This document shows positions 10,729 through 28,098 of a DNA stretch of 34,734 nt, one piece after another. The stretch comes from a virus (Duplodnaviria; Heunggongvirae; Uroviricota; Caudoviricetes): the IMG/VR virus record IMGVR_UViG_2531839454_000020; one strand, 5' to 3'. Within the stretch, counting starts at the first letter, position 1; each line of letters begins with the position of its first letter. Under the pieces are notes generated by a model. It was not told where the DNA came from, ran no database searches, and was given only the letters and a program-made list of their open reading frames with translations. Position numbers and translations under genes: made by a program.

Positions 10729-12729
10729 ATGCTTAAATTTCGCCGCGATCTTAACGGTTACGGTGGAGTTATTAACGAAGGGCATAACGATCAATACGAA
10801 TTTGAAATTGCTTTCTCCAGTGAACAGCCGTATCAGCGCCAATTCTGGGATGAGCAAAATCAAGAGATGGGGGTACTAGATGAAATTCTGGTACATACAC
10901 CGGAAGCGGTTGATCTGTCTCGTCTGAATAATAACGCTCCATTGCTGTTCAATCATAATTTCGATAATCATTTAGGTGTAGTCTGCGACGCTCGAATCGA
11001 TGCGGATAACGTAGGTCGTGCTCTGGTTAAATTCTCTAAGCATGGCACTTTGGCTAATGATATTCGCAATAAAGTCATTGAAGGTACGATGGAAAAAATT
11101 TCTGTCGGCTATGACATTAAAGAATATCACATCGATTACGCCAAAGGGCAATTGATTGTTACTAAGTGGGCGCCCTATGAACTCTCATTTGTCACCGTTC
11201 CTGCTGACGATACGGTCGGTTTAAATCGCTCTCTAAATACTATCACAGTTAATTTGGAGGCTAAACGCGATATGACTAAAGAACAAATTGAAGAAATCAA
11301 AGAAGAACAAGAATCCGCTCAGGTTGAAGAAACTCCGGTAGAAGAAATTAAAGAATCGGAAGTTGAAGAAACTCAAGAGCGCCAAGTTGAAGAGAATAAA
11401 GAAGATGAAAATCTCGAAGACGGAAAAGACGCTGAACATCCTGAAAGTGTTGATGATGATAGTTCAACTGTTCGGGAAGAAGAAATAAAAGAAGAACGTG
11501 AAGCTGCTCCGGTTGAAGAAGAAAAAATCGAAGAAGTGGCTGAACGTTCCGAAGAAGACGAATTAGAAATTCGCGAAATTGCACGCGAACTAAATATTGA
11601 TGACGAAGAATTGAAACGCGCATTGGCAATTAAAGACATGACGCCGGAAGCATTCCGCACTAAGGCACTAAATAATCTCGTCAATGCTCAACGTAATAAC
11701 GAACAAATTAAGGACTCTAAAATGGAAAAAACTTTTGACCTGAACAACGTAATTCGCTCTCTGGTAGATGGTGCTGCTCTGGGTGCTAACGAAGCTGAAT
11801 ATTCCTCTATGGCTGCTGGTGCTGCGATGCAGCGTGGTCGTGCTGCTCGTGGGGGCTCTGTATTCGTTCCGGCTGCTGCTCTGCGTGCTGCTGCTGATGG
11901 TAACACCAAAACTACTCTGACCGCTGTAACTGACGAAAAACTGATGACTGAATCCTACATCGAAATGCTGATGCCGGAATCTGTTCTGGGTCGTCTGGGT
12001 GTGACTGTTTACAGTGGCTTGAACTCCCCGACCGCTATTCCAAAAATGACCGCTTCCAGCGTTGACGCTTTCGGCTTCGTTGATGAAAACGGTGCTGCAC
12101 CGGAAAGCAAAGCTGAATTTGCGAACGTGAAACTGTCTCCGAAAACTTTTGCTGGTGGCAACCCGATCAGCCGTCAGTCGCTGAAAACCGTTCCGGGCAT
12201 CGCTACCCTGATCACTGATCACATTAACAAAGCTGTTCGTATCAAACTGGAACAACTGATTCTGTCTGATAAAGAAAATGCTCGTGGTCCGGCTGGTCTG
12301 GTTAAGCAACTGGTAGACGCTAGCCGCGTTACCAAGAAAGCTGCTTTCTCTTATAAAGACTTCCTGAAAGAAATTGCAGCACTGACCGACGCTGGCGTTC
12401 CTGCTCAGGCGATCAAGTTTGCAATGAGCGGTGCAACTGCTGCTGAACTGGAATCTACCCTGAAAGATAACGGCGTTTCCGGTTATATCATCGAAAACGG
12501 CAAACTGGCTGGTTACGAAGTAGTTACTTCTGGCGTTATCCCGGCAGACCACATCGTTCTGGGTGACTTCTCCGGTATTACTATCGGTGAGTGGGGAGGT
12601 CTGGAACTCGACATGGATCTAACTACATATAGGGATCGTGGTGCGGTAGTGCCTCGTATCTTTGTAGATTTGGACTACGTTGTAGCACAGCCGGAAGCCC
12701 TGAAAGTTCTTCACATCTCCGCTGAATGA
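10729..12729 (+). CDS. prohead protease - scaffold-like acidic linker - major capsid protein fusion (666 aa)
   Basis: N-terminal ~190 aa protease-like region, then an E/K-rich segment (EQIEEIKEEQESAQVEETPVEEIKESEVEE...), then a ~350-aa HK97-like capsid region. Antisense minus-strand ORFs here are artefacts. Confidence 0.7.
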   Translation: MLKFRRDLNGYGGVINEGHNDQYEFEIAFSSEQPYQRQFWDEQNQEMGVLDEILVHTPEAVDLSRLNNNAPLLFNHNFDNHLGVVCDARIDADNVGRALVKFSKHGTLANDIRNKVIEGTMEKISVGYDIKEYHIDYAKGQLIVTKWAPYELSFVTVPADDTVGLNRSLNTITVNLEAKRDMTKEQIEEIKEEQESAQVEETPVEEIKESEVEETQERQVEENKEDENLEDGKDAEHPESVDDDSSTVREEEIKEEREAAPVEEEKIEEVAERSEEDELEIREIARELNIDDEELKRALAIKDMTPEAFRTKALNNLVNAQRNNEQIKDSKMEKTFDLNNVIRSLVDGAALGANEAEYSSMAAGAAMQRGRAARGGSVFVPAAALRAAADGNTKTTLTAVTDEKLMTESYIEMLMPESVLGRLGVTVYSGLNSPTAIPKMTASSVDAFGFVDENGAAPESKAEFANVKLSPKTFAGGNPISRQSLKTVPGIATLITDHINKAVRIKLEQLILSDKENARGPAGLVKQLVDASRVTKKAAFSYKDFLKEIAALTDAGVPAQAIKFAMSGATAAELESTLKDNGVSGYIIENGKLAGYEVVTSGVIPADHIVLGDFSGITIGEWGGLELDMDLTTYRDRGAVVPRIFVDLDYVVAQPEALKVLHISAE

Positions 12730-12866
12730 ACTCCTGTAGAACCTTCTGAACCTTCCCCCGATTTGGGGGAAGAAAATCTGATTCCATCTCAGGAAGAAGA
12801 AGTTCAAGAGGTTACGGCGAAAGCCACAGTTAAAAAAGAACGTAAGACTAAAGCAAAATAATAATT

Positions 12867-12895
12867 AGCCCTGCCTTAATGGTGGGGCTTTTTTG
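12867..12895 (+). terminator. intrinsic terminator downstream of the capsid gene
   Basis: agccctgcc/ggtggggct stem followed by tttttt; lies after the 44-codon in-frame extension, not directly after the capsid stop. Confidence 0.6.
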
Positions 12896-12925
12896 TATGT
12901 AAATACTCCATAAAGGGGGGTAACT

Positions 12926-13216
12926 ATGTTCAAATTATCAGAATCACAATTATCAAGAATGTTCCGAAGTGCTCCTGTATTTTCGGTGGAAGGTGGTAAA
13001 TCAATTCGTGCTTATCATGAAATTACTACTACCGACGAACAAGGGGTAATGACAGAAACAGAATTTCTATTCTGTCGTGAGGGAGACTTAAAGCAGGGTG
13101 ATATTGTCATTGTAGAAAATCAGCGTTTCAAAGTTCAATATATTAAGCGCAATGGTGATAATACTTGTGATTGCTTTATCACTTTAGCAGGGGGTACACA
13201 TGCTCGCTACCGTTAA
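12926..13216 (+). CDS. head-tail joining/neck protein (96 aa), hypothetical
   Basis: SD AAGGGGGG; position between capsid and tail genes. Confidence 0.4.
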   Translation: MFKLSESQLSRMFRSAPVFSVEGGKSIRAYHEITTTDEQGVMTETEFLFCREGDLKQGDIVIVENQRFKVQYIKRNGDNTCDCFITLAGGTHARYR

Positions 13217-13622
13217 TAATATGCCGAGACTGAAAATCAAACGCGCCTTGCAAGATATTATCGAACAAGATTTAGGTCTGGCTTTAAACGTAGAACAAAC
13301 TCAGCAAGGTTTTAGTAATGACGTGGTTTGTTGGATTACTGGCATGAATGAGACTTACACTAGGGTCCGTGGCGGTAATGCAATGCAAGCTGAGTGTGTT
13401 ATCGAAATGCAATTATATTCCCAAATTCATGAAACCAAAATCCATGAGGGTATTTGCCAGATAATCCAGATTCAGCCGGATAACCCACGTTTTAAAGATA
13501 TGGGATTCTCTATTTCAGATATCACTCCAGTAGCCTCTAATACCGATTATGACGATGATTCTAGTGATGGGGGTATCGTTGGGACACTTAGCCTTAAATT
13601 TTCTTATCTAGCGCGTTTTTAA
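13200..13622 (+). CDS. head-tail joining or tail completion protein (140 aa), hypothetical
   Basis: Overlaps previous gene by 17 nt (coupled); SD GGGGGT. Confidence 0.4.
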   Translation: MLATVNNMPRLKIKRALQDIIEQDLGLALNVEQTQQGFSNDVVCWITGMNETYTRVRGGNAMQAECVIEMQLYSQIHETKIHEGICQIIQIQPDNPRFKDMGFSISDITPVASNTDYDDDSSDGGIVGTLSLKFSYLARF

Positions 13623-13631
13623 GGGGTAATA

Positions 13632-14465
13632 ATGAATATTACACAAGATAACTTAGACATTTTCACGGGGTCGCATGTTGAAGTCTCCGTGTCTACTATG
13701 GTGGATAACCAGCCGGACTTTTTCGATCCTGCATTTAGTCCTATCGAGAACATCGCAGCATTTCCGACGATAACCGAATCCACAGAGATCCAGACGTTAG
13801 AAGAATATGACCATGATGTTACTGGTAAGTTGGCTGGCTATCGTAAACTTGAATCAACAACACTCACAGTAAACCGTGTTCTGGATGATGAACATCAAGC
13901 AATGTTGATGAAAGCGGTAGAGGATAAAACCCCTTTACGCTTCCGTATGTTCTATGTTGTGAACTCTGGCTATAGTGCTGCTAACACAGGATACTACGTC
14001 ATTTTTGATGCATACGTCACATCACACAAAACCCGTGGTAGCGATAACAAAGTTACTACCATCGAATTTAAATTAGATCCTGATGGTGGGATTCTCGACC
14101 GTGGTATTGCCACCGAAGGCCGGATCTTACGTCAAGGTGATTTTGGTTTGGGTGCTGGTGTAAATCCATTCACGGGTCCGATTGATAGCGAAGCATTAGC
14201 CGGAAACCGTTTCGTAACCTATCAGGGATCGAGCGCATCTAACCCATTTAGTGCTGATACTTCACTAATTCACGTTCAACCTAATGAAGATGGAGGATGG
14301 CAATTAACTTGCACCGCTTCCGGCGCACCACGTTTACGAGTTCGCACAGTCCAGAAAGACGGTAATTCTGGATGGGTGAAAGTGTATTCCACAGAAGAAA
14401 AACCGACACCAGCCGAGATTGAAGCCGTTTCTATCCATGACCGGATCGATTTCGGGGAATACTGA
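13632..14465 (+). CDS. structural protein (277 aa) with C-terminal Ig-like region; tail tube- or decoration-like
   Basis: SD AAGGGGT; C-terminal LTCTASGAPRLRVRTVQKDGNSGWVKVYS suggests a Big_2/Ig-like fold as seen on some major tail or decoration proteins. Confidence 0.4.
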   Translation: MNITQDNLDIFTGSHVEVSVSTMVDNQPDFFDPAFSPIENIAAFPTITESTEIQTLEEYDHDVTGKLAGYRKLESTTLTVNRVLDDEHQAMLMKAVEDKTPLRFRMFYVVNSGYSAANTGYYVIFDAYVTSHKTRGSDNKVTTIEFKLDPDGGILDRGIATEGRILRQGDFGLGAGVNPFTGPIDSEALAGNRFVTYQGSSASNPFSADTSLIHVQPNEDGGWQLTCTASGAPRLRVRTVQKDGNSGWVKVYSTEEKPTPAEIEAVSIHDRIDFGEY

Positions 14466-14491
14466 TTGCTTCTCTAAATAAAACATGACGC

Positions 14492-14523
14492 GGGGAGGTT
14501 AACGCCTCCCTTATTCCTGTTTT
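14492..14523 (+). terminator. intrinsic terminator upstream of the fibre gene
   Basis: gggagg-ttaacg-cctccc followed by T-rich ttattcctgtttt. Confidence 0.5.
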
Positions 14524-14538
14524 ATATGAGGTGATTAG

Positions 14539-17500
14539 ATGCAATCAATCCAATTTAAACGAACTAATGTTTCTGGCAAAAAACCAACGCCGGAACAATT
14601 ACAGGTCGGTGAGGTAGCAATCAACCTTAAAGACCATGTTATTTTTACCAAAGACCGAGATCATGAAGTAGTTCAAATCTCTGTTTCTCCTGAAACTCAC
14701 GCGGCACTAGAATCTAAAGTTGATGCTAATAAAAAAGAACTGGATAGCACAATTGTAGTAAACGACCGCAATATTCACGCTAAAGTAGATGAAATTAAAC
14801 AAACTACTGATGCAACAATCGCAGCAAATCACGCAGAAATTAACAATAAAGTTGATGTAATTAAACGCGAAACCGACGCGACAATCGAGGCCAATAAAAA
14901 TAAAGCTGCTTCCGATCTTGCTGGTGTTAAAGCTGAATTGTCGGATACCATCAACGCTAATAAAAATGCGGCTGCTGTAGCAACTCAGGAACTGGACACC
15001 CGCATCAATAAAAAAGTTGATGATATTAAATCCCGTACCGATGCAACCATCGTAAGCAATCACAAAGCAATCAATGACAAAGTTGATTTGATTAAGGCAG
15101 AAACTGACCGCACTATCGCAGCAAATCACGCCTATGCGGAAAATCAGTTAACTGACACCTACAATAACCTTACTGGTGTGATTGCAGCCAATAAGCAAGA
15201 GGCAGCGGATAACGTCGCAGCATTAACCCGTGATGTTGAAGCCAAAAATACAGCAATTCATAGCAAAGTTGACAATAACAAGTCTTACACTGATTCTGAA
15301 TTGGCACGCTTAGAAAGCCGTATTGATGCAGCCGATGGATCAAGTGATGGTAAGTACATCAAAAAGCACGTAAACACTTGCACTGATGGCTATTTGCTGT
15401 CTAAGACCGCAAACCCTTTTGATGATCCGAGTGCTCTTAATCTTGATTACTTTGGTGCATTTCGCATGAATGACCTGGCGGGTCATATTGCAATGATCTT
15501 GCATGTTCCGCACCCATCCGGCGTTAATCATGCTCGTGGTTTTGAGTTCACTTATGGGTCTAATCCACATGCTACTGTAAGAACATACGGCTATGATGAA
15601 TTGGGACATTTGGCATATTCTCACCGCATGTATCATGAAGGTGATAAACCTACTCCGGCTGAAATTGGCGCATATTCGAAAGCAGAAATTGACCGACTGT
15701 TCCAGAAGACGCTTAATTTTGGTATCGAGGGTGGTTGGTTTAAACTAGGCACTTTGACAATGCCACAACAACACGGTCGCACGGCTAAGATCCGTTTGGT
15801 AGGTGGTAACGGTTATAACGTAGGACATAATGGAAAAGCCAATATTATCGAATTGGTGATTCGATGCGGCAACAATAGCCCGAAAGGTGTTGTATTCAAT
15901 GCGTATTATACTATTTGGCATTATGAACAACATTTTTGCGCTATTCCAACCGATGGCGACAATTACGATCTTTACGCTTACTACGGTGCACATACAGGAT
16001 TTGTTTTAGCAGAATATCAAGTTTCTTCCGGTGGTGTTTCTTTAAACCTGTTGGATACTCCTGAATATCTGGGTGGTGAAAAACCTGTTGCAGATGAAAT
16101 TTTTGATGCTCTTAACATTTCATCGTTCAATAACTTTAGCAACCGTGGGACGTTAAATTTTGCTGGCAATCATCAAGGCCAATATGATATTGAGCATTTA
16201 AACGAACAACCGACAAATGCTAAAAAGATGTTGCGTCGCTTCCGTAGTTGTGCACCAGCTACAATCTGGCATGAGACAGTTGATGATAACGCATATCGTC
16301 TTGCTACTGGATACGAAGATACAAATCAGGAATTATTGCTGACAGCAACATCCGGGTTACATGTCAAGAAATTAACATTGGATGGCGGTGTTACTGGAAA
16401 TTCTGGTATTGATATTCGTCGAGGACCAAACGAATCAAGTCATTTTAATTTCATGGATTATCGCACTGGACAAGATGTTCGTAATGGTTGGTTTGGTTTT
16501 GGTGATGGAACAACCAAAGATTTTATTTGGTGGAACGATAACGGTCAAAACTCTATAAACCTGATTGAAGATGGTGAATTGCATATTACTGGCGGTAAAG
16601 GCCAGAAAATTGTAATGAATAGCGAAGTTGCATTATCTGAAAATGCTCGTTTGGCTGTCAAAGGTGGTAACTATGGCTTAATTTTTAGAAATGATGGCGT
16701 TGGCTTCCATATTCTTACCACAGATCTCGGTGATTCATTTGGACCGTGGAATACTCGTAGACCATTCAGCTATAATTTTGCTGACGGTGGATTATATTTA
16801 GGTGGCACTGAAACTGCTCGTTGTTTGCATCTTGGAATTGATGGTAGTACCCGTCTTGAAGACAACCTTTTCTTTAAAGCTGGTTCTCGTCAATCTATGG
16901 ACTATATGGAACTCGTCCATTGGGGGGCAAGCAATACAGGTCGAAATAACGTTTTAAGTCTTCGTGACTCAAAAGGATTTTTCGCAGAATTTGAACGATT
17001 GGGTGATAATACCATTAAAAACACCTTCTTCGGGAAACTTAAAGTTAATCGTGGTTCTGACGCAATCGTCATGAATGCCGAAACGGGTGATTCGTCTATA
17101 TATTTGCTGGGTACTTGTGCTGATAATAACAACTGGTATATCGGTAAAGGTGGTGCTGATAATGGATTAGCGTTCTATAGCTATGCTACTAATGCTGCTA
17201 TCAATATTACAAACGCGGGTGATATCGCGCTAAGTCCAAAAGGTGTCGAAATGACTCATGTCAATAACGTTCGATTCTATGTTCATGGTGAACGTTGGAC
17301 TGCTAGCCAATCTGGAGGTTGGGGCGATCAATGGGGATTAGAAGCGCCGATATTTGTCGATCATGGTTATGTAGGACCAGATAGCTATTATCCAATTATT
17401 AAAGGAAGAAGTTTAATCACCAATCAAGGGTATACAACTGCCGTCGATTTTGGTATGCGTCGTGTTCCTCAAAATTGGGGGCAAGCAATTATTCGCGTTG

Positions 17501-17949
17501 GATCTGCGGAGGCATCGCCAGCGGCTGGTCATCCTCAAGCGGTGTTTGAATTTCATCATGATGGTACTTTCTATTCTCCTGGTAATGGTAACTTTAACGA
17601 TGTTTATATTCGTTCCGATGGTCGTCTGAAAATTAATGTTGAAGATTACGAAGAAAATGCGGTGGATAAGGTAAATAAACTCAAAGTTAAAACCTACGAT
17701 AAAGTTAAATCTCTTAATGACCGAGAAGTTATAGGTCATGAGATTGGTATTATCGCACAGGATTTACAAGAGGTATTACCGGAAGCTGTTAAAACCGCAA
17801 AAATTGGTGGTCTTGATAACCCAGAAGAAATTTTAACAATTTCAAACTCCGCAGTGAACGCGCTTTTAATTAAAGCGGTCCAAGAAATGAGCGAAGAAAA
17901 TAAACTTCTTCGTGAACGTCTTGCTGCAATTGAAGCTAAATTAGGGTAA
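14539..17949 (+). CDS. L-shaped-type tail fibre with C-terminal intramolecular chaperone (peptidase S74-like), 1136 aa
   Basis: N-terminal FKRTNVSGKKPTPEQLQVGEVAINLKD; four KVD-x-IK-xx-TD-x-TI-xx-NH repeats; C-terminal ~110 aa beginning S|DGRLKINVEDYE and ending in a coiled coil, as in auto-cleaving chaperone domains of T5-type fibres and endosialidases (recalled). Confidence 0.75.
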   Translation: MQSIQFKRTNVSGKKPTPEQLQVGEVAINLKDHVIFTKDRDHEVVQISVSPETHAALESKVDANKKELDSTIVVNDRNIHAKVDEIKQTTDATIAANHAEINNKVDVIKRETDATIEANKNKAASDLAGVKAELSDTINANKNAAAVATQELDTRINKKVDDIKSRTDATIVSNHKAINDKVDLIKAETDRTIAANHAYAENQLTDTYNNLTGVIAANKQEAADNVAALTRDVEAKNTAIHSKVDNNKSYTDSELARLESRIDAADGSSDGKYIKKHVNTCTDGYLLSKTANPFDDPSALNLDYFGAFRMNDLAGHIAMILHVPHPSGVNHARGFEFTYGSNPHATVRTYGYDELGHLAYSHRMYHEGDKPTPAEIGAYSKAEIDRLFQKTLNFGIEGGWFKLGTLTMPQQHGRTAKIRLVGGNGYNVGHNGKANIIELVIRCGNNSPKGVVFNAYYTIWHYEQHFCAIPTDGDNYDLYAYYGAHTGFVLAEYQVSSGGVSLNLLDTPEYLGGEKPVADEIFDALNISSFNNFSNRGTLNFAGNHQGQYDIEHLNEQPTNAKKMLRRFRSCAPATIWHETVDDNAYRLATGYEDTNQELLLTATSGLHVKKLTLDGGVTGNSGIDIRRGPNESSHFNFMDYRTGQDVRNGWFGFGDGTTKDFIWWNDNGQNSINLIEDGELHITGGKGQKIVMNSEVALSENARLAVKGGNYGLIFRNDGVGFHILTTDLGDSFGPWNTRRPFSYNFADGGLYLGGTETARCLHLGIDGSTRLEDNLFFKAGSRQSMDYMELVHWGASNTGRNNVLSLRDSKGFFAEFERLGDNTIKNTFFGKLKVNRGSDAIVMNAETGDSSIYLLGTCADNNNWYIGKGGADNGLAFYSYATNAAINITNAGDIALSPKGVEMTHVNNVRFYVHGERWTASQSGGWGDQWGLEAPIFVDHGYVGPDSYYPIIKGRSLITNQGYTTAVDFGMRRVPQNWGQAIIRVGSAEASPAAGHPQAVFEFHHDGTFYSPGNGNFNDVYIRSDGRLKINVEDYEENAVDKVNKLKVKTYDKVKSLNDREVIGHEIGIIAQDLQEVLPEAVKTAKIGGLDNPEEILTISNSAVNALLIKAVQEMSEENKLLRERLAAIEAKLG
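17617..17946 (+). other. predicted auto-cleaved intramolecular chaperone domain of the fibre
   Basis: Begins at the Asp of ...YIRS|DGRLK...; 110 aa to the stop. Confidence 0.55.
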
Positions 17950-17987
17950 TTGGAAAGCGGGGAGAAATCTCCGCTAAGGATTCTTAT

Positions 17988-18284
17988 ATGGGATATTGGG
18001 TAAGTAGTGAAATTAATACTAAAATCGATGCTTTAAAATGGCATGTATTTGATATTCCTAACGGCTATGGTACTGCTCGTGCTGGTGTCGCTGTAATGCG
18101 TCATAATGCTGGTGGTGGGTGGTCTGATGCACATATTAACGTAGATGGTTTGACCGTTGCTCGTCGTCGTGGTGGGACCAATTGGGGATCTACTATAAAT
18201 TCGTTTGTTCCTGCTGGCTGCACCGTCTCCTTTGGTTTAGGGGGTGAAGGTGGTGTTGAATATTTTAAATTCATGGAGTTTTAA
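17988..18284 (+). CDS. small Gly-rich protein, paralog 1 of 3 (98 aa), function unknown
   Basis: MGYWVSS...FDIPNGYG...CTVSFGLGGEGGVEYFKF; AAGGA SD. Confidence 0.6.
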   Translation: MGYWVSSEINTKIDALKWHVFDIPNGYGTARAGVAVMRHNAGGGWSDAHINVDGLTVARRRGGTNWGSTINSFVPAGCTVSFGLGGEGGVEYFKFMEF

Positions 18285-18286
18285 TT

Positions 18287-18592
18287 ATGGCTGGATGGAT
18301 AAATCAAAGAATGTCAAACGCTATTAGTATTTGGGCTAATGGTGGATATTTTGATATCCCCAACGGCTGGGTTACTGATTCATGCGGAATTGTTTTTGCT
18401 CATATGGAAGCCATTAACGGTGCTGGTGATCTTGATTCTGAATTGGCTGTAAATGGATTGATTGAATCAGGTCATCATGCTGGTGATGCTGGGAGTTGGG
18501 GCGCTAGTTCTTTAGTTGGCGCTGGTGCTACCGTTAGCTTTACATTGGGTAAAGGTAGTTTGCATTATTTTAAATTCAGGAGAATGCACTAA
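18287..18592 (+). CDS. small Gly-rich protein, paralog 2 of 3 (101 aa), function unknown
   Basis: MAGWINQ...FDIPNGWV...ATVSFTLGKGSLHYFKF; starts 3 nt after paralog 1; SD GGAG. Confidence 0.6.
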   Translation: MAGWINQRMSNAISIWANGGYFDIPNGWVTDSCGIVFAHMEAINGAGDLDSELAVNGLIESGHHAGDAGSWGASSLVGAGATVSFTLGKGSLHYFKFRRMH

Positions 18593-18894
18593 TGGCATTT
18601 TGGGTAGATGGCGCTTTGGGGAATAGGGCGGGTAAAGCAAATCAAGGATGGTTTGATATTCCTAACGGTTGGACAGCCGACGCTTTCGGGACTATTTCAT
18701 TCTGTGCTCATTCTTCCGGTGGTGGCGGTGGTGACTCTGAATTGCTTATTCATGGTTTGTGTGTTTCTGGAAGCCATAAGGGTCATGATTGGGGACAGAT
18801 TCATTCTTGTATTGCACCGCAAGGGGCGGTAATTACCGTTAGCACAAATAGGGGGATCGCTCATCTTCGTTATAGACGTTTGAGCAACCGCTAA
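18592..18894 (+). CDS. small Gly-rich protein, paralog 3 of 3 (100 aa), function unknown
   Basis: MAFWVDG...FDIPNGWT...AVITVSTNRGIAHLRY; start overlaps the stop of paralog 2 (TAATG). Confidence 0.6.
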   Translation: MAFWVDGALGNRAGKANQGWFDIPNGWTADAFGTISFCAHSSGGGGGDSELLIHGLCVSGSHKGHDWGQIHSCIAPQGAVITVSTNRGIAHLRYRRLSNR

Positions 18895-18948
18895 ATAAAT
18901 AGAATTACGGGTATGTGCCCTATTGTTTAAAATAGAAGGAAAAGAATA

Positions 18949-19419
18949 ATGACTACTAAATTTGATATTTTTTCTGGTGGCCTCGTTGGTCTGTTTCTGC
19001 ATGAAGAAGTAACTAACACCGATCTTGACAGTGAAAGCTATCTGGAAATTCCAGAATGTGCGGCTTTCCCGGAAACTGGTGTAGAACGTTCTACTGTCGA
19101 TGTTCCTAACTTCGGTGGTCCGTATAACCGTAAGCTGGTTGGTCGTATGTCTGTACCGGATATCGAACTTTCGATCAACTACATGCCGGGTAACGAAGTA
19201 CACGAAAAACTGATTAAAGCAACCGAAGACGGTAAGCGCGTACAGATTAAAATTGCTTACTACATCGACGCTACGAAAAAATCTGGTGTACATATCGCTT
19301 ATAACGGCTTCCTGTCTAAAACTACCATGACTGGTGGTGAGGATGCTGTAGTAGGCCGTACCTTCACCTTTGTAGTAGATGGTGCTCCGGTTAAACAAGC
19401 TGTTTTCCAGAAACTCTAA
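18949..19419 (+). CDS. major tail (tube) protein, putative (156 aa)
   Basis: Directly upstream of the G/T chaperone pair and tape measure; strong SD GAAGGAAAAG; followed by a strong terminator. Confidence 0.5.
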   Translation: MTTKFDIFSGGLVGLFLHEEVTNTDLDSESYLEIPECAAFPETGVERSTVDVPNFGGPYNRKLVGRMSVPDIELSINYMPGNEVHEKLIKATEDGKRVQIKIAYYIDATKKSGVHIAYNGFLSKTTMTGGEDAVVGRTFTFVVDGAPVKQAVFQKL

Positions 19420-19427
19420 TATTATCT

Positions 19428-19452
19428 AGCCATCCTTCGGGGTGGCTTTTTT
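19428..19452 (+). terminator. intrinsic terminator after the major tail gene
   Basis: agccatcc-ttcg-gggtggct followed by tttttt. Confidence 0.65.
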
Positions 19453-19501
19453 GTTTCCAATTCTAAATAAACATATCTAATTAACTTAAGAGGAAACAAG
19501 A

Positions 19502-19810
19502 ATGAATATTAATGAAATGCTGAAAGCTCTTTCTCCGAAACGCGAATCTCTGACCATCGGTGGATTCACTTTCTATGCTCGCCCTATGTCAGTAAAAGAA
19601 TTTAACGAACATGTTTTCAATACCGATAAAGATGACCGTGATGAACGTTCTATTCTTCGTTGTATTGAAGATGAAGACGGTAAACCAGTATTTGAATCTA
19701 TGGAACAAGTTAAGGCACTGTATACTAACGTCCGCAGTGAATTAATCGGTTTGGTTGCTCAAGCGTCATTGATGCAAGATCCGGCAGTAATTGAAAACGA
19801 GGTAAAGTAA
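19502..19810 (+). CDS. tail assembly chaperone (lambda G-like), 102 aa
   Basis: Position before the tape measure; SD AAGAGGAAA. Confidence 0.55.
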   Translation: MNINEMLKALSPKRESLTIGGFTFYARPMSVKEFNEHVFNTDKDDRDERSILRCIEDEDGKPVFESMEQVKALYTNVRSELIGLVAQASLMQDPAVIENEVK

Positions 19811-19839
19811 ACCCGCTTCTGAATTTCTATTTCCGGCAA

Positions 19840-20181
19840 ATGATGCGATCGGGGCTTAGTAAAGATGAAATGGATAATATGCCAATCACTCTATTTTGGA
19901 AATTATACATTTTCGACACCTACTTAGAACCACAAAGCCCCGCGTTTCATGATATGCAGAATGCGATGTTGCAATATTCCATGTATATGACGTCGCAAGG
20001 AATGACACGCGAAACTGCAAAGAAACTCAAGCCTAGCCAATTCCAATTAATTAGAGAAGAAAAACTCTTTAAAACTAAAGAAGAACTGGAAGAAATTGCA
20101 CGCAAGAAAGAAGAAGAACGTAAAGCGGCAATGCTGAACATGTTTGATCCATCTTTGCTTGAGAAACTCAGAAGCGGTTAA
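19840..20181 (+). CDS. tail assembly chaperone T-like ORF, probably expressed as a G-T fusion by -1 frameshift
   Basis: ORF is in the -1 frame relative to G and opens at 19795, before the G stop (19808); no SD before its first ATG; A-AAG shifty site directly before the G stop. Confidence 0.45.
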   Translation: MMRSGLSKDEMDNMPITLFWKLYIFDTYLEPQSPAFHDMQNAMLQYSMYMTSQGMTRETAKKLKPSQFQLIREEKLFKTKEELEEIARKKEEERKAAMLNMFDPSLLEKLRSG

Positions 20182-20192
20182 AGGGGTAATTT

Positions 20193-22622
20193 ATGACAAA
20201 ACATATAGTAACAATAGAAGGGGATAATAAAGGGCTAAAGAGAAGTACCAATGAAGCCGCCGACCTTCTCGATAGTTTGTCTGAAAAGGCAAGTAATATT
20301 GATTTTGGTGGTGGCTTATCTGGTCTGACTGGATCTCTTCGTGGGATCGCTGGCTCTGCTGGTTTGGCTGCTGGTGGTATTGGCTTAGTTGCGACCGCAG
20401 TGGTTGCAGCCGCTAAAGCTGGTGCGGAATACGTTAAACAGTATTCAGAAGTATCTAAGGCGACCGGACTCTCGATTGAATCCCTTCAAAGACTAGAAAA
20501 GGAATTTTCTGGCACTGGCTTAACAGTTGAAAAATTCGGTGATATCAACAAAGACACCTTAGATAAAATGGGTGATGCATGGGCTAACGGTGGCGGTATT
20601 GCCGATGACTTAGAATCGGTTGGCCTTAAGTTAGAAAACTATGCTCACTTCATGACTGATCCGCAAGGTGGTATGAAAGCGGCGATCCAAGTGTTCTATG
20701 ACATGAAGAAAGCCGGAAAATCAATGGCTGAAATCAAGTTCATGATGGAATCTTTAGCCAGTGATTCAAGCCATATGACCAGCCAGCTTGAGAAATATAA
20801 TACTGCTCAAGAGGCGATGATCGCTATTCAGAATCAATCTGTTAACGTCACCGAAGAAAACGCTAAAAAATATGATAAATTTTCTCAAAATATCAATAAG
20901 CTGGAAAATAACCTGAAAGGTGTCGGTATGACCATTTCTGGTCCGCTGGTTGATAGTTTAAACTGGTTATTTGACTGGTTTAATATTGATTGGGAAAAGA
21001 GTTCTCTATTCAGGGCATTAGATCGACTGAATAAAGAAGGCAAGACCGCAACTGGCGGTATTCTTAACGCCAACCATAAAGACGCTCAAAAAATTATTGA
21101 CAAGTACAATAAAGAAAAGCGTTGGAATAATCTGGCAGATTGGGAAAAGGCCGCGATCCGTGGTGCTGGTGTCGATCCTCGTACTGCTGGCTTTGATGTT
21201 GAAGGATTTAAGAAACGTTTTGGTGATTCTTATAAGAAAAATGGCTCTCTGATTGTTGTCGATAACGGGGAACATCTGACACGCAAGGCAGATCCTAACA
21301 CTGATTTGACTATACCAAATAAACCAGTAAGACCAGAATCATTGGGTAAATCTGGCAACGAGAAGAAAGCCGAAGAAGAAGCACGCAAGAAAGCGGAAGA
21401 GGCAGCTAAAAAGGCTAAGGAAGCCGCAGAAAAAGCACAGAAAGAACGCGAGGACGCAATCAAGCGACTGAATGCACTTGATGTTAAATTGCAAGGGCAG
21501 GTTGCCGCGTCTATTGCTTCTCAAAACAAGCAGTTAGAAGCCAGTTTGAAAGATTTGGATACTGCTTTAGCTCTGGGCTTAATCTCTCAGGAAGACGCAG
21601 CCGCGAAACGCCAGGCGCTAATCGATCAGAATACTGAAAACGTATACAAAATGGTCTTAGGTGCTGATCCGGTTGATGCTCTGAATGCTTTAACACAATT
21701 GCAACAAATCAGGGACAACGAGTTAGAAAGCCATAAACGGTTACTTGATGGTAAGGCTATCTCCTACGAAGAATATATGCGTCGTGTGAATGATACCGAA
21801 CAAAGTTATTCACAGATTGAAGATTCTTTGCATGGAATGGATGGTTTTAAAACCAATCAATTGACCAATAGCTTAGACTATCAGGACTCAAATAATCCGT
21901 TTGCTAAATTTAATGCAATCGATAAAGAGAAATCGGATGCTGAACAAGATTATAAGACCGATAAACTCAAGATTGATGGGATCACCGATCCGGCTAAACG
22001 GATGGAAGAATTAGAAAAACTCAATGAAAACCATCAAAAACGAATGGCTGCAATTGAGAAGAAATATGCTGATGCTCGCCAGTCAATAGCCGATGATATG
22101 TACGGCGGTTTTGCTGCTGCAATGACTCTCTTCGGGCAGGAAAACACTAAAGCTATGCAGATGGCTTTCAATGCTCATAAAGCATTCTCTATCGGACAAG
22201 CGACGGTGAACATGTGGACGGCTGCTACCGATGCATGGAACGATCCGACCAACGTCACCACAGGTCAAAAAATCGCGGCTGCTGCATTGGCTGTTTCTCA
22301 GAACATGGGGAACATCGCAAACATCAAGTCTACTAACGTTAGCGGTATGGCTCATGATGGTATTGATAACATCCCTCGTGAGGGTACATGGTTGCTTGAT
22401 AAGGGTGAACGAGTAGTTGATCAGCGTACTAACGGTGATTTGAAAGACTTCCTTGCTGCTCAAAAATCAGGTGGGGGTAACTCTCAGCCGATTGAAGTTA
22501 ATGCGCCTTTGAACATTAACGGCAACGTTAATAGCTCAGACAAGATGGTCATGGATGCTATCAAACGTCACGCTAAGTTTGTTGCTCAGGCGATAGAAGA
22601 CGTTCAGCGTCGTAAGATGTAA
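20193..22622 (+). CDS. tape measure protein (809 aa)
   Basis: Long protein after the chaperone pair; Gly/Ala-rich N-terminal segment and K/E/A coiled-coil stretches (EEEARKKAEEAAKKAKEAAEKAQKE). Confidence 0.75.
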   Translation: MTKHIVTIEGDNKGLKRSTNEAADLLDSLSEKASNIDFGGGLSGLTGSLRGIAGSAGLAAGGIGLVATAVVAAAKAGAEYVKQYSEVSKATGLSIESLQRLEKEFSGTGLTVEKFGDINKDTLDKMGDAWANGGGIADDLESVGLKLENYAHFMTDPQGGMKAAIQVFYDMKKAGKSMAEIKFMMESLASDSSHMTSQLEKYNTAQEAMIAIQNQSVNVTEENAKKYDKFSQNINKLENNLKGVGMTISGPLVDSLNWLFDWFNIDWEKSSLFRALDRLNKEGKTATGGILNANHKDAQKIIDKYNKEKRWNNLADWEKAAIRGAGVDPRTAGFDVEGFKKRFGDSYKKNGSLIVVDNGEHLTRKADPNTDLTIPNKPVRPESLGKSGNEKKAEEEARKKAEEAAKKAKEAAEKAQKEREDAIKRLNALDVKLQGQVAASIASQNKQLEASLKDLDTALALGLISQEDAAAKRQALIDQNTENVYKMVLGADPVDALNALTQLQQIRDNELESHKRLLDGKAISYEEYMRRVNDTEQSYSQIEDSLHGMDGFKTNQLTNSLDYQDSNNPFAKFNAIDKEKSDAEQDYKTDKLKIDGITDPAKRMEELEKLNENHQKRMAAIEKKYADARQSIADDMYGGFAAAMTLFGQENTKAMQMAFNAHKAFSIGQATVNMWTAATDAWNDPTNVTTGQKIAAAALAVSQNMGNIANIKSTNVSGMAHDGIDNIPREGTWLLDKGERVVDQRTNGDLKDFLAAQKSGGGNSQPIEVNAPLNINGNVNSSDKMVMDAIKRHAKFVAQAIEDVQRRKM

Positions 22623-23932: not shown

Positions 23933-24352
23933 ATGCTAAAAACTAGGCTTATCACCGATTACATCAATTCTTTAATAGGTCAGGAGTTCGTTCAAGGCGA
24001 GAATGATTGCAATATAATTGCATGTAAGATCATCGATATTCTCGCTGGTACTGACCTATATAATTCTCTTTATAAAAAATATTCAACTAAAGAAGAAGGC
24101 TTGAAAATCTGCAAAGAATTAAGCGGATACACAAATATCCTTCAACCAATTAAGAAACATTTCAAATTAGTCACTGATGATTTACAGGACGGCGACTTAC
24201 TGGTCACAGCCCACAAATTAGGAAACCGCAAATATTATTCCGTAGTTCCTCATTATTCCGGTTATGGCCTCGTTGAAGAAGATGGTATCTGGATGACCAT
24301 TCCTGTTTCAGACATTGACTATGAACAAGTTTATAGATTCGGGGGGGAATAA
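23933..24352 (+). CDS. tail assembly protein (lambda K-like, NlpC/P60-type), 139 aa
   Basis: Start at MLKTRL with GGAGGT SD; ENDC motif suggests an NlpC/P60-type catalytic Cys; stop overlaps the next start. Confidence 0.45.
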   Translation: MLKTRLITDYINSLIGQEFVQGENDCNIIACKIIDILAGTDLYNSLYKKYSTKEEGLKICKELSGYTNILQPIKKHFKLVTDDLQDGDLLVTAHKLGNRKYYSVVPHYSGYGLVEEDGIWMTIPVSDIDYEQVYRFGGE

Positions 24353-27300
24353 TGGGATTTGAAATATTGGTAGGCGCGGTTATTGCTGGTGCGTCTGCTG
24401 GGATGGCTGCTGCTGCAACATTTTCTGTTATGACCGCAGTCGCTATCGGTATGGCTGCTGGTGCAATGACCTTGATCGCTTCCACTGTAGGCGCACCAAA
24501 AACACCGAAAGTACAAAGCCCAGATAATGCGGTGACACTAGGAACATCAAACGATCCTAAGACAGTATTCCCCGTTCTTTTCGGTACTACCCGCACGGGT
24601 GCAATCTGCGTTTACAAAGCAATTTCACAGCGTGAAAACAACAAACTGGTACAAATTTTTGCTATTTCCGAAGGTGAGATCGATCACTTTAAAGCACTGC
24701 ACATCGATAATAAAAACGTTCTCATTAGCCAGAATATGACAATTCGTGATGGCATTCTCGATAAAGGAAACATTAAAGACGAATACCGCAAAGTTTTAGA
24801 AGTCGAGTTTCGCACGGGTAAAAATCCTAACACTGCATTGGATTTAGCTAAACATCATTTGGGCGCTGATTGGGATGATCGGTATCAGGGTAACGGCATT
24901 GCGACCATGTGTATTGTTTTACGTCGTGATGACAAATCTTTGGCTGCTGGTGTTGATATTCTCCAGCCTAATAGCCAGGTAGCGGTCGATGTTATGGGCT
25001 TAAAGATTCGTAACCTTGAAACCAATGCTATTGAGGCTAGCACTAACGGCGTGGACCAGATTTTCCATTATCTGACAAATACAAAGTATGGTCTTAGTGT
25101 ACCGATTGAAAATATTAACGTTGATTCATTCCTGAAAGTGCGTAAACAAGTACGCCAGATGGATTTACATTCCAACGGTGCATGTGATCCGAACGCCAGC
25201 TTTAAAGAGAACTTAACTAGCCTTATGCAGACTTTCGGCGGGGTGATGTTCGAATCCTTTGGACGTATTACGCTGAAACTGGATGCTCCTGATATTGTTA
25301 AGCATACTTTCAATGAAGACAATATCATGATGGGTAAGGTATCACTGAAAACAGGTGGCACTAACGGTTATTTCAATACCATTAACGCGATGTATCAAGA
25401 ACCATCAATCGACTATTCAGAGCAAATGCTACGTTATCCGGCTGATGCTGAAAACGATGCTACTATTCGTCAAGATGGTCGAATTATCGCTAAAGATATC
25501 GAATATCGTTTTGTTAAGTCTAAAGCCCAGATTGATAAACTAGCAAGTATTGAACGAAATAAATCTCGTATCACTCAGGTTATCAGCTTTATGACTACTG
25601 ACGCGTTCACTGCCGAAGTGTGGGATGTTATTAGCGTTACCTATGATGAATTGAAACTGAATAATTCACTTTGGCGCATTACTGCAATTGATCGTTCTAT
25701 TGATTCTGGTATTGCTGGGATGATGACTATCACCGCTACAGAATATAATTCTCAGGTTTATACTGACCTGAACTATGCGGCGACTCCAGACAATAGACCT
25801 ACTGGTTTACCGGATTCAATGACAGTACAGAAACCGACTAATTTCAGAATTAAGGCAACTGGTGAGACAATCCACGGTAAAAACGTTACTTTGACATGGG
25901 ATGCACCGGAAGATTTTAACCGCTACGGTTTCCAGATTGATTATCGTGTGAGTGGATCACCTAACTGGATTAAGCTGGGACAGACTTCACAGCAAATTTT
26001 CAATATCAATGCACTGGCAAAAGATCGTTCCTACGATTACCGCGTTTGTGCTTTCGGTATTATTGCTCGTTCCGAATGGGTGGAACTGGTTAACCAGAAT
26101 CCAGAAGTTACCTATGAACTGCCTACGCCAGTGATCCGCATCAAAAATCAGGGTGGCACACCAGGAACTTTTGAAGGCAATGATCTGATTATCGAATGGG
26201 ATAACCAGCAACAATTAGATGTGATGATCAACGGTGAAGCTAACAAGTTTAGTGACCTGTTTGAAGCATACATTATCAAGGTAACTAACAAGGCTGGTAA
26301 GTCTATTCAGTACCGTACCCGCGATCCTGAATCATGGACGTATACGCTTGATATGAACCAGTTTAACGGCCTTTCGCGTCAACTGACGGTAGAAGTATCA
26401 GCTAAGGGCTATAACAACTCAGAGAGCGCCCCAGCGCGTTTAGTGGCTATCAACCCACAACATAAGCCGATGAAAGGTTTTAGTGCGCGTGGTGGCTTTA
26501 ATACTGCGTTTGTTAGCTGGGCGGATGACGTAGAACATGACTATGCAGGGTCAATCATCCAGTATGCAACCGATAATACTTTCTCCGATGCAAGGGCAGT
26601 GACTACCAATAGCGTTAGTCATACTTCCTTTGATTTGGCTGACGGGGATTATTATATCCGTGGTGCTCACTATGATATTTTCGGTATGGATGATGCTGTT
26701 TGGTCTGAACCGTATTTCATGCAAATGAAATCTACCATTAGCTGGGACGATCAGGACAAAGAAGCACTGGAAGACCTGATTGGTTTACAAGATCGCTTAG
26801 ATGAAACCATCGCGGATGCTATTGCTCAAGCTGGCGCTAATGCCGATGCTAAGATTGATGCAATGCATAAACAGATTACTACCGAAACCGGAAAGACGGT
26901 CCAAGCCTCAGCCGATACCCTTAAGAATCTGATTGCTACCAGTGAGCAAGCCAGCGCAACTAAGATTGATCAGGTTAAAGCTGAACTGAAAGGCGATATC
27001 ACCAAAGAAGTTAGCGCATCCGCTACTACCCTGAAACAAGCAATTGCTACCAGTGAGGCAGCAAGCGCAAGTAAGATTGATCAAGTTCGGGTAGAAATGG
27101 ATGGCAAGATTGCTGGTGTGAATCAGGAAGCAGATGTAAAAATCGATGCTTTGAAGGGAACCATTAACAGCAAATATAATCTGGCAGTTAATGCAGATGG
27201 TCGCGTGGCTGGTATTCATATGAGCGCAACCAATGATCCGGCAGAACCGACAAGAATCATCTTTACGGCTGATAAAATCGCGGTAGCTCCACAAGACGGA

Positions 27301-28098
27301 TCAGAAGTTTGTCCGTTTGGCATCGAAGATAACAAAGTTTATCTTGATAATGCGATGATTCGTAATGCTGCAATTGGCACAGCCCAGATTAGTGATGCTA
27401 GTATCACCACGGCTAAGATCGGCACAGCCCAGATTAACGGCGCTCACATCCAACACGCACAGATCGGAACAGGTCATATCATTGATGGCTCTATCGATAA
27501 TGCTAAAATTGGTAACTATATCCAGTCTTATAACTGGAATGGTAACGATGGATGGTATATCGGCAAAGATGGCACTTGTCATTTTAGACACGCTAATATT
27601 CGTGGTCATTTGGTGGCTGATTCCGGCGAAATGAACAACGTAACGATTAATTCAAGTTGCCGCATTTTGGGTATGCTTGATGCTAATCAGGTGCGTGGTG
27701 ACTTCGTGAAAGTGGTTGGTAGGAGTTTCCCGCATCGCCAACCAAACTGGCCTGATGGTACAATCACTGTAAGGGTCGAAGATGATCATCCATTCGATCG
27801 CCAAATAGTGATTCCAGCGATTCATCATAACGGGTCTGTTCGTAGTGGCGAAAGTAGCGATCATTGGGATACTTGCCGACTAATCGTTAAGAAAAATGGT
27901 GGTGTTCTATATGATCGCACTGCAACTTCTGGCTGTATGTACAGTGGAGTTATTGACATGCCAGCCGGACACGGGGCAGTAACAATGACTTTTGAAGTTT
28001 ACTGTAAGGGCGTTAACAACTATAACCCAAGTGCATATATCAGCGATCTAACGGTAATGGTAACTAAGAAAGCCGCTACTGGTATTTCTGTTTCTTAA
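24352..28098 (+). CDS. central tail fibre / host specificity protein (lambda J-like) with gpI-like hydrophobic N-terminus, 1248 aa
   Basis: Gly/Ala-rich hydrophobic N-terminus; long central region; C-terminal DDHPFDRQIV...VIDMPAGHGAV...VMVTKKAATGISVS resembles the receptor-recognition end of lambda-type J proteins (recalled, not aligned). Confidence 0.7.
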   Translation: MGFEILVGAVIAGASAGMAAAATFSVMTAVAIGMAAGAMTLIASTVGAPKTPKVQSPDNAVTLGTSNDPKTVFPVLFGTTRTGAICVYKAISQRENNKLVQIFAISEGEIDHFKALHIDNKNVLISQNMTIRDGILDKGNIKDEYRKVLEVEFRTGKNPNTALDLAKHHLGADWDDRYQGNGIATMCIVLRRDDKSLAAGVDILQPNSQVAVDVMGLKIRNLETNAIEASTNGVDQIFHYLTNTKYGLSVPIENINVDSFLKVRKQVRQMDLHSNGACDPNASFKENLTSLMQTFGGVMFESFGRITLKLDAPDIVKHTFNEDNIMMGKVSLKTGGTNGYFNTINAMYQEPSIDYSEQMLRYPADAENDATIRQDGRIIAKDIEYRFVKSKAQIDKLASIERNKSRITQVISFMTTDAFTAEVWDVISVTYDELKLNNSLWRITAIDRSIDSGIAGMMTITATEYNSQVYTDLNYAATPDNRPTGLPDSMTVQKPTNFRIKATGETIHGKNVTLTWDAPEDFNRYGFQIDYRVSGSPNWIKLGQTSQQIFNINALAKDRSYDYRVCAFGIIARSEWVELVNQNPEVTYELPTPVIRIKNQGGTPGTFEGNDLIIEWDNQQQLDVMINGEANKFSDLFEAYIIKVTNKAGKSIQYRTRDPESWTYTLDMNQFNGLSRQLTVEVSAKGYNNSESAPARLVAINPQHKPMKGFSARGGFNTAFVSWADDVEHDYAGSIIQYATDNTFSDARAVTTNSVSHTSFDLADGDYYIRGAHYDIFGMDDAVWSEPYFMQMKSTISWDDQDKEALEDLIGLQDRLDETIADAIAQAGANADAKIDAMHKQITTETGKTVQASADTLKNLIATSEQASATKIDQVKAELKGDITKEVSASATTLKQAIATSEAASASKIDQVRVEMDGKIAGVNQEADVKIDALKGTINSKYNLAVNADGRVAGIHMSATNDPAEPTRIIFTADKIAVAPQDGSEVCPFGIEDNKVYLDNAMIRNAAIGTAQISDASITTAKIGTAQINGAHIQHAQIGTGHIIDGSIDNAKIGNYIQSYNWNGNDGWYIGKDGTCHFRHANIRGHLVADSGEMNNVTINSSCRILGMLDANQVRGDFVKVVGRSFPHRQPNWPDGTITVRVEDDHPFDRQIVIPAIHHNGSVRSGESSDHWDTCRLIVKKNGGVLYDRTATSGCMYSGVIDMPAGHGAVTMTFEVYCKGVNNYNPSAYISDLTVMVTKKAATGISVS

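Follow-up and report, generated by a model that had tools for sequence, protein, structure and literature searches.

A T-even gp37-type fiber homolog with a C-terminal Peptidase_S74 domain in a fixed slot next to a tail-tube paralog of a siphovirus-type Escherichia coli prophage

The DNA analyzed here, referred to below as the window, is a viral stretch of 34,734 nucleotides (IMG/VR record IMGVR_UViG_2531839454_000020). Its tail genes are of the lambda-like noncontractile type (tube, tape measure, and J), and upstream of the major tail gene it carries a long fiber gene with a tail-tube paralog on one side and three small paralogs on the other. The genes and features of this locus are as follows.

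13632..14465, plus strand: p277, a 277-aa tail-tube paralog (PHROG 158) and proposed anchor of the fiber
14379..14462, plus strand: last 28 aa of p277 (KVYSTEEKPTPAEIEAVSIHDRIDFGEY-COOH), a gp36-like joint motif matching Krischvirus gp36
14492..14523, plus strand: terminator-like hairpin between p277 and the fiber gene, GC rich with a T-rich tail
14539..17949, plus strand: fiber gene (1,136 aa), a gp37 homolog with an inserted rod and an S74 chaperone
14539..14691, plus strand: N-terminal joint domain of the fiber, aa 1-51 (IQFKRT...GEVAINLKDHVIFTKD), homologous to the gp37 N terminus
14716..15330, plus strand: rod of 22-aa repeats, aa 60-264, predicted to be alpha-helical
15340..15681, plus strand: first shaft domain, aa 268-381, ending in KPTPAEIGA and homologous to the C-domain of p277
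16468..16773, plus strand: Gp34_trimer-type domain, aa 644-745 (Pfam PF21446, E = 1.6e-12)
17614..17949, plus strand: Peptidase_S74 intramolecular chaperone, aa 1026-1136 plus stop, with a Ser1026/Lys1031 dyad
17956..17975, plus strand: intercistronic hairpin just before the s1 ribosome-binding site, part of the mobile cassette
17988..18284, plus strand: s1, a 98-aa paralog modeled as a C1q/TNF/CBM-like jelly roll
18287..18592, plus strand: s2, a 101-aa paralog
18592..18894, plus strand: s3, a 100-aa paralog
18949..19419, plus strand: major tail tube protein, 156 aa (PHROG 158, E = 3.7e-20), end of the fiber slot
19428..19447, plus strand: strong intrinsic terminator after the tube gene

The fiber open reading frame is preceded by a GAGGTGA ribosome-binding site, and its product matches PHROG 1699, "long tail fiber distal subunit" (E = 2e-128). 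Over the 857 residues from 280 to 1136, the fiber is 87% identical to aa 66-920 of gp37 from Krischvirus KFS-EC, and positions 16135-18255 of the window (~2.1 kb) are 97.3% identical to the DNA of that phage. This homology begins at the first shaft domain and includes the Gp34_trimer-type domain, whose matches in the PDB are the Mu fiber protein S and T4 gp34. The N terminus, which is kept in all relatives, is also gp37-like, with 39% identity to T4 gp37 over 64 aa (E = 2e-15) and 41% identity to aa 4-54 of Krischvirus gp37. The order of domains is a gp37-like N-terminal joint, a repeat rod of ~228 aa, the gp37 shaft and tip, and a 111-aa Peptidase_S74 domain. With both a homologous joint domain and a homologous shaft, the fiber is, by sequence comparison, a full-length T-even gp37-type (T4-family) distal long-tail-fiber homolog. 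The joint domain, shaft, Gp34_trimer-type domain, tip, and chaperone all have homologous counterparts in Krischvirus gp37, and a downstream hairpin and small open reading frames are also common to both. The setting of the fiber is different. A gp37 normally belongs to a gp34-gp35-gp36-gp37 fiber on the baseplate of a contractile tail, whereas the window contains no gp34, gp35, or gp36; its tail is noncontractile, and the proposed partner of the fiber is a tail-tube paralog instead of gp36.

The rod is absent from Krischvirus gp37 and sits between the two gp37-matching parts of the fiber, directly after the joint domain. The four N-terminal repeats that had been noticed in the original prediction were recovered as four clear copies of 22 aa (66 nt) starting at aa 82, 104, 159, and 181 (DNA 14782-15126), with two further degenerate copies starting at aa 60 and 243. 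Tandem Repeats Finder found nothing in the repeat region because the repeats are too diverged at the DNA level, and they are visible only with a gapless repeat finder and in the protein sequence. Residues 52-265 contain no proline and two glycines in 214 aa and show hydrophobic periods at 22/n, 3.65 among them; the rod also gave a weak Pfam apolipoprotein match, under the cutoff for that profile.

The original prediction had placed a chaperone domain of ~110 aa at the C terminus of the fiber and had suggested a comparison with peptidase S74, and in this comparison aa 1026-1085, at the extreme C terminus, matched Pfam PF13884 (Peptidase_S74) with 52.8 bits (curated cutoff, 22) and an E value of 5e-14. 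Ser1026, encoded by the TCC codon at 17614-17616, lies in an SDxRxK motif with Lys1031 five residues further downstream, and 111 aa extend from this serine to the end of the protein. The closest solved structure to the domain is that of S16 gp37, and a self-cleaving domain of the S74 kind is present in most T-even gp37 proteins (PMC9569957). In T5 pb1, the equivalent dyad (Ser1264/Lys1269) has the same spacing and the protein is cleaved at Thr1263|Ser1264. By analogy, the scissile bond of the fiber is probably Arg1025|Ser1026, that is, before the serine and not after it as had been proposed. The chaperone would drive trimer folding of the distal shaft, and the dyad would then remove it to leave a mature fiber of 1,025 aa with its tip exposed.

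The slot that holds the fiber ends at the tube gene (18949..19419), whose product also matches the Pfam lambda tail-tube profiles, under their cutoffs. The two hairpins said to bracket the fiber gene are both present, each with a stem of 8 bp, although their z-scores are only −1.9 (14492-14511, −13.6 kcal/mol) and −2.5 (17956-17975, −13.3 kcal/mol); the second is kept in Krischvirus and Salmonella relatives. Scans of the window against Rfam and for tRNAs were empty. Among 37 relatives fetched from IMG/VR, 33 extend into the slot, and every one of the 33 has a fiber-type gene between p277 and the tube gene. The slot is also filled in the E. coli prophages of RefSeq, as well as in relatives from Salmonella, Edwardsiella, Proteus, and metagenomic data with identities as low as 40%. 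These genome comparisons show that the fiber slot is fixed in the E. coli prophage lineage and is not a recent insertion; the synteny does not bear out the suggestion that the gene had been inserted into a lambda-like gene order. The notion of an acquired module fits the distal cassette instead: the last three quarters of the fiber and the paralogs are common to virulent Krischvirus phages at 89 to 97% DNA identity. The same comparisons show that distal shaft, chaperone, and downstream accessory genes have been swapped as cassettes with virulent Krischvirus and among prophages. The GC content stays between 39 and 45% throughout the fiber slot and the tail genes and does not set the cassette apart, and it thus gives no indication of the direction of transfer.

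The three paralogs after the fiber, described as such from the start, are 24 to 36% identical to each other and have W4 and the motif FDIPNGW in common. Pfam and PHROG searches with them and with a 140-aa open reading frame gave no match, and literature searches found no description of small paralogs of this type. Structure models suggest C1q/TNF-like jelly rolls. Homology to gp38 was considered and rejected (hhalign probability, 1.7%); in the Pfam searches, s1 to s3 matched neither the Gp38_N three-Trp attachment domain nor the glycine-rich binding domain of gp38. When 1.84 billion representative proteins were searched with an HMM, the matches were about 15 clusters of stand-alone ~100-aa proteins of this type, and the only long ones were generic surface proteins of repeated beta-sandwiches. 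In S16/T2-type phages (6F45), gp38, the product of the next gene downstream, caps the tip of gp37 once the chaperone has been removed. Sister prophages (ETEC4085 and Edwardsiella) carry gp38 beside the same fiber type, whereas the window has the three ~100-aa paralogs. We tentatively suggest that s1 to s3 may be fiber-tip accessory or adhesin proteins. It is a serious possibility, if a somewhat improbable one, that they are instead cargo (e.g., for antidefense or exclusion) unrelated to the fiber and hitchhiking beside a recombination hot spot. Consistent with cargo are the lack of profile matches, the absence of any fusion to a fiber protein in the HMM search, the many relatives that have the fiber with nothing further in the slot, and the inheritance of s1 to s3 with the chaperone subtype instead of the mature tip type. 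However, they occupy the exact gp38 slot in prophages and Krischvirus alike, and in ETEC4085 gp38 stands in for s1, s2, and half of s3. E. coli, Salmonella, and Krischvirus have also kept the three ortholog groups together, the genes lie in a late structural operon behind a conserved hairpin and ribosome-binding site, the proteins have no signal peptides, and the C1q/TNF/CBM-type jelly roll modeled for s1 is typical of binding heads.

The gene upstream of the fiber had been read as a head-tail joining gene. The fiber does lie upstream of the major tail gene, as stated, but its upstream neighbor is a tail-tube paralog, p277, with an N-domain (aa ~10-160) of tail-tube fold and a fiber-like C-domain (aa ~170-267). 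This protein matches PHROG 158, "major tail protein" (E = 4e-9), is 27 to 30% identical to the tube proteins of relatives, and in a Foldseek search with the AF2 model of its N-domain matched lambda gpV (E = 1e-7; TM, 0.62), so that both profile and fold are those of a tail tube. The model is confident for the tube domain and unreliable for the C-domain (pLDDT of <50 at aa 163-221), which is 30% identical to aa 285-380 of the fiber (E = 2e-4). The 28 C-terminal residues of p277 and those of Krischvirus gp36 are 46% identical (E = 3e-5), with ...KPTPAEIEAVSIHDRIDFGEY at the C terminus of p277 resembling ...KPTPAEVGAVPLNAVIDFGTF in gp36, and the ending ...IDFGEY resembles ...QDFGYY of T4 gp36. 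A BLAST comparison of T4 gp36 with the p277 C terminus found nothing, and only DFG-x-Y in the last five residues is common by eye; a profile of gp36 C termini was not feasible, since BLAST reaches Krischvirus gp36 only. KPTPAEIGA-type motifs recur within many fiber proteins, and the terminus-specific part is limited to the last ~10 residues. Within the p277 family, D273 and G275 are invariant and F274 is nearly so. Of 901 open reading frames, 10 end in D[FL]G.[YF], all of them p277 homologs, gp36 proteins, or a linker piece from a Proteus relative. Two proteins fill the slot of that relative. The first, of 198 aa, has a joint N terminus, a repeat rod, and a ...MDFGTF end; the second, of 675 aa, has a gp37-like N terminus. 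The joint thus occurs two times in succession there, and phage DCP80 has the same layout.

Short terminal motifs and the constant adjacency of the two genes in relatives suggest that p277 is probably the anchor of the fiber, by a joint of the T4 gp36-gp37 type. The N-terminal joint of the fiber would dock on the ...IDFGEY C terminus of p277, which would itself form a ring within the tail, and the docking would copy the junction between the gp36 C terminus and the gp37 N terminus in T-even long tail fibers. As in the T4 family, the partner gene comes first and the gene with the gp37-like N terminus second; the differences are that p277 joins its gp36-like end to a tail-tube domain and that the likeness is one of sequence. 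A hexameric tube ring is not an obvious match for trimeric fibers. Literature searches found no description of a fiber anchor of the p277 type.

A conventional side fiber on the tail tip, attached like lambda Stf to the J-like or distal tail protein, with p277 as a minor tube or terminator protein whose C terminus is mere decoration, appears unlikely. In its favor, the J protein is of the lambda type and has an Ig_GpJ_C domain, KPTPAEIGA is a generic fiber motif, and decorative C-domains are frequent on tube proteins, lambda gpV among them. The locus also resembles lambda Stf/Tfa in that an accessory side fiber belongs to a lambda-like tail and has in the past undergone exchange with T-even gp37. 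Unlike the Stf/Tfa pair, however, the fiber is encoded upstream of the tube gene, and the open reading frames after J contain no fiber or Tfa domains; it has a predicted self-cleaving chaperone in place of Tfa and a different proposed anchor. Decoration would also leave aside that the terminal ...DFG-x-[YF] is specifically common to gp36, the natural partner of the gp37 N terminus, that the Proteus two-piece fiber repeats the same pair of termini, and that p277 and the fiber gene are always adjacent.

A very unlikely explanation, already largely refuted, is that a module for an L-shaped fiber like T5 pb1 was recently inserted into an otherwise lambda-like head-tail and tail gene order. The fiber shares with pb1 its S74 chaperone, its Ser/Lys spacing, and presumably its role as a siphovirus side fiber; its gene is flanked by hairpins, and its distal part has clearly been exchanged horizontally. 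But the best BLASTP match to pb1 had an E value of 0.36, with no similarity past the SDxRLK motif, PDB searches returned no match to 4UW7 or 4UW8, and neither search found a pb1-type shaft or receptor-binding domain. Both ends of the fiber are gp37-like, the label "L-shaped type" had to be given up, and the slot is occupied in every relative examined from four genera and a metagenome. The tail gene cluster of T5, too, includes a tube paralog, p140, annotated as "base plate tail tube protein." It lies at the distal end of the tube, beside the p132 collar that bears the L-shaped fibers. In T5, however, ltf comes after the tip genes, and for attachment the record annotates a collar protein of its own (T5.136). 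Least credible of all is a nonfunctional relic of a defective prophage: some genomes have IS insertions in the region and s2 is frameshifted in one relative (L017), but every open reading frame in the window is intact, the region occurs in 56 of 5,426 complete E. coli genomes (24 of which match at least 80% of the 9-kb query), and a full set of head, tail, lysis, and recombinase genes is present.

We consider it probable that the locus is the side-fiber module of a siphovirus-type E. coli prophage, built around a gp37-type fiber that docks on p277 and whose distal part is exchanged as a cassette. The J-like central fiber (24352-28098) would remain the primary receptor binder, and the side fiber would speed or broaden adsorption. 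A more specific proposal, in which a portable DFG-x-[YF] plug-and-socket joint is combined with a C1q-like tip head of s1, s2, and s3 that replaces gp38, is rather doubtful as a whole. The pair of ...DFG-x-[YF]-COOH and IQFKR...GE-AIN-D...TKD would mount a T-even distal half-fiber on the duplicated tail-tube ring of a siphovirus and could be chained, as in the Proteus two-piece fiber, and s1, s2, and s3, possibly as a heterotrimeric C1q-like head, would cap the fiber tip once the S74 chaperone leaves.

Phage engineering is aimed mainly at receptor-binding fibers, which set the host range of phages. If the proposal is correct, a short portable joint for T4-type distal fibers on a siphovirus tube would be a ready-made adaptor for fiber swaps between tail types. 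Temperate prophages carry a cassette nearly identical to that of virulent RB49-like phages, whose cytosine is unmodified (PMC6563267), and this points to a current flow of host-range determinants between phages of the two lifestyles. The three-paralog family shows that T-even fiber tips without gp38 are incompletely known, and a head of s1 to s3, if real, would form a class of phage tip adhesin not described before, found in both temperate prophages and virulent Krischviruses.

The 1,136-aa fiber open reading frame noted in the original prediction is present, follows a GAGGTGA ribosome-binding site, and ends in an S74 chaperone domain (Pfam Peptidase_S74, aa 1026 to 1085, E = 5e-14, 52.8 bits; the Pfam cutoff is 22 bits). 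The flanking hairpins are real, and the N-terminal repeats, each 22 aa (66 nt) long, begin at aa 82, 104, 159, and 181, with degenerate copies beginning at aa 60 and 243. Features of the region are as follows.

13632-14465, plus strand: gene for p277, a 277-aa protein
14492-14511: hairpin 5' of the fiber gene, -13.6 kcal/mol, T-rich tail, flagged as terminator-like
14539..17949, plus strand: fiber gene
Fiber aa 644-745: Gp34_trimer domain (Pfam)
17614-17616: codon for fiber Ser1026, with Lys1031 five residues further on
17956-17975: hairpin 3' of the fiber gene, -13.3 kcal/mol, without a T-run

A T5-type (L-shaped) fiber had been proposed, but homology to T5 pb1 was rejected: BLASTP gave nothing below E = 0.36, and pb1 was absent from the PDB search matches. 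The fiber instead matches PHROG 1699, "long tail fiber distal subunit" (2e-128). Fiber aa 280 to 1136 are 87% identical to aa 66 to 920 of gp37 from Krischvirus KFS-EC, a T4-like myovirus, whose DNA is 97.3% identical to window positions 16135 to 18255. The N terminus (aa 1 to 51, IQFKRT...GEVAINLKDHVIFTKD) is likewise gp37-like, with 39% identity to T4 gp37 over 64 aa (E = 2e-15) and 41% identity to aa 4 to 54 of Krischvirus gp37. Given this body and this N terminus, the fiber is a full-length gp37 homolog with ~228 additional residues (aa 52 to 279) after the N-terminal joint domain. Over 214 aa, the insert contains no Pro and 2 Gly; it shows 22-residue repeats and a hydrophobic harmonic at 3.65 residues and gives a weak, subthreshold Pfam match to a 22-mer apolipoprotein profile. 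We infer that it forms an alpha-helical rod about 30 nm long. Rod and gp37 body are fused in frame in the window and are two separate proteins in a Proteus relative.

The fiber with its chaperone is of an already known kind. The S74 domain of T5 pb1 folds the trimer, and Ser1264, activated by Lys1269, cuts between Thr1263 and Ser1264 and departs with the chaperone, unmasking receptor binding (PMC4690869); most T-even gp37 proteins have the same kind of domain (PMC9569957). Cleavage had been expected after Ser1026, but because T5 pb1 is cut at Thr1263-Ser1264, the cut predicted by analogy falls one residue earlier, between Arg1025 and Ser1026.

The gene directly 5' of the fiber encodes p277, a paralog of the tail-tube protein. 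This protein matches PHROG 158, is 27 to 30% identical to the tube proteins of relatives, and has an N-terminal domain whose AF2 model matches lambda gpV (E = 1e-7). Its C-terminal domain is homologous to fiber aa 285 to 380, and the final 28 residues of p277 share 46% identity with the final 28 of Krischvirus gp36 (E = 3e-5). In T-even fibers, the gp36 C terminus, which in T4 reads ...QDFGYY, abuts the gp37 N terminus. Residues D273 and G275 do not vary within the p277 family, and F274 is nearly invariant. The ending D[FL]G.[YF]-COOH was found in 10 of 901 open reading frames (ten loci), namely, six p277 homologs, three gp36 proteins, and one 198-aa Proteus protein. In T-even fibers, the gp36 trimer lies just proximal to gp37 (PMC5537660). 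The fiber may dock onto p277 through a gp36/gp37-type joint. The Proteus protein is decisive for this model: it has the joint N terminus, the same repeat rod, and a ...MDFGTF end, and the 675-aa protein that follows it again has a gp37-like N terminus, so that the joint is used twice in series there. As an analogy for a position of p277 at the tip end of the tail, T5 p140, a tube paralog that sits distally on the tube, lies in one tail gene cluster with a collar protein annotated in the T5 record as serving fiber attachment.

The window, an E. coli prophage, encodes a terminase and portal of the lambda type, a protease-capsid fusion, tube, tape measure, J-like tip, and serine recombinase. A 9-kb query around the fiber (window 12000 to 21000) matched 56 of 5,426 complete E. 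coli genomes, 24 of them over at least 80% of its length. Under this match, the annotations of several strains (H86, H88, H89, H94, and H95) include elements of the IS4 or IS3 family or a gene for a GIY-YIG nuclease. Of 37 IMG/VR relatives fetched, 33 extend into the slot between the p277 and tube genes, and all 33 have a fiber-type gene directly 3' of the 277-aa gene; an S74-bearing fiber precedes the tube gene in all 28 that reach it. The slot also holds a long, fiber-type gene in Salmonella, Edwardsiella, Proteus, and metagenome relatives whose 277-aa protein is just 40 to 65% identical to p277; S74 was found in the Salmonella and Edwardsiella fibers, and the Proteus and metagenome proteins had no Pfam match. 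Phage DCP80, the sole INPHARED record with the module, has the same layout. This record (L047, PQ671644.1; 141 kb), classified as Gaprivervirus (T4-like), carries at 1 to 23000 a complete siphovirus-type head-tail module akin to the window prophage, with a 43% identical capsid protein, and may be a chimeric assembly or mislabeled.

Given its occupation across these relatives, the slot is a lineage trait, and insertion into the gene order, as originally proposed, is contradicted by synteny. The idea of an acquired module thus fails for the slot, which is kept throughout the relatives compared, but holds for the distal cassette, which on sequence comparison is the exchanged part. Homology to KFS-EC extends over window 15402 to 18255, and that to Krischvirus G37-3 over 17595 to 18910 (95%). 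Per-segment identities show that the shaft, the final ~225 mature-tip residues, the chaperone, and the genes 3' of the fiber reassort freely, with breakpoints concentrated near the invariant motif GNG(N/S)FNDV(Y/H)IR|SD.

The three open reading frames 3' of the fiber, s1 to s3 (98, 101, and 100 aa), are indeed paralogs, as predicted. Their family is small (39 clusters when grouped at 90% identity), has no named function, and includes named members from Escherichia, Shigella, and Salmonella only; among representatives at 50% identity, a full HMM scan gave ~15 stand-alone proteins of ~100 aa and a few long repetitive matches. E. coli prophages keep the three ortholog groups as an ordered triple, as does Krischvirus G37-3, and a Salmonella prophage has three open reading frames (99, 132, and 99 aa) at the corresponding position. 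In KFS-EC (L004, 7855 to 8281), a single chimeric frame replaces the triple, with the N-terminal part of s1 fused to an s3-like segment and an s3 tail next in another frame, which looks like a deletion through recombination between paralogs.

The position of s1 to s3 is that of gp38 in sister prophages. In E. coli ETEC4085 (L002, 8965 to 10021), a mature tip 96 to 100% identical to that of the window is followed by a different S74 subtype, a complete gp38 adhesin, and an s3 relic of 51 aa; gp38 has apparently taken the place of s1, s2, and half of s3. In S16 and RB49, gp38 caps gp37 once the chaperone is released, via three Trp-tipped helices, and each of s1, s2, and s3 has a near-invariant Trp4 at a helix start. 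That they are tip-accessory proteins is our leading guess, not a finding, and a tentative one: against tip docking, their inheritance follows the chaperone subtype, not the tip type, about twenty relatives have no accessory gene, and s1 to s3 have no homology to gp38.

Elsewhere in the window, ~100 bp (177 to 276) are 99% identical to sequence in many Stx2-converting phages, annotated in phage Nil2 as "putative passively mobilized insertion similar to IS285." Positions 2500 to 3746 (~1.2 kb), between divergent small genes and upstream of a Rha-like regulator and the terminase, hold no open reading frame of at least 60 aa on either strand and have no Rfam or tRNA match; this stretch may represent a regulatory or cos region. 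At 10729 to 12729, the 666-aa major capsid protein matches a PHROG "major head and protease" family, its relatives have Peptidase_S78 and Phage_capsid domains, and a strong terminator-like hairpin (12867 to 12889) lies 3' of its gene. A large serine recombinase at the right prophage end (31588 to 33282, minus strand; Resolvase, Recombinase, and Zn_ribbon_recom domains) is presumably the integrase.

In the literature searched, we found no description of mounting on a tube paralog, in-frame rod insertion, or triple paralogs in the gp38 slot, and p277 mounting via a gp36/gp37-type joint, the rod insertion, and the triple paralogs appear to be undescribed. The J-like tip protein (24352 to 28098) has a lambda-type Ig_GpJ_C receptor-binding domain, and the phage therefore has a central receptor binder besides its gp37-type fiber.
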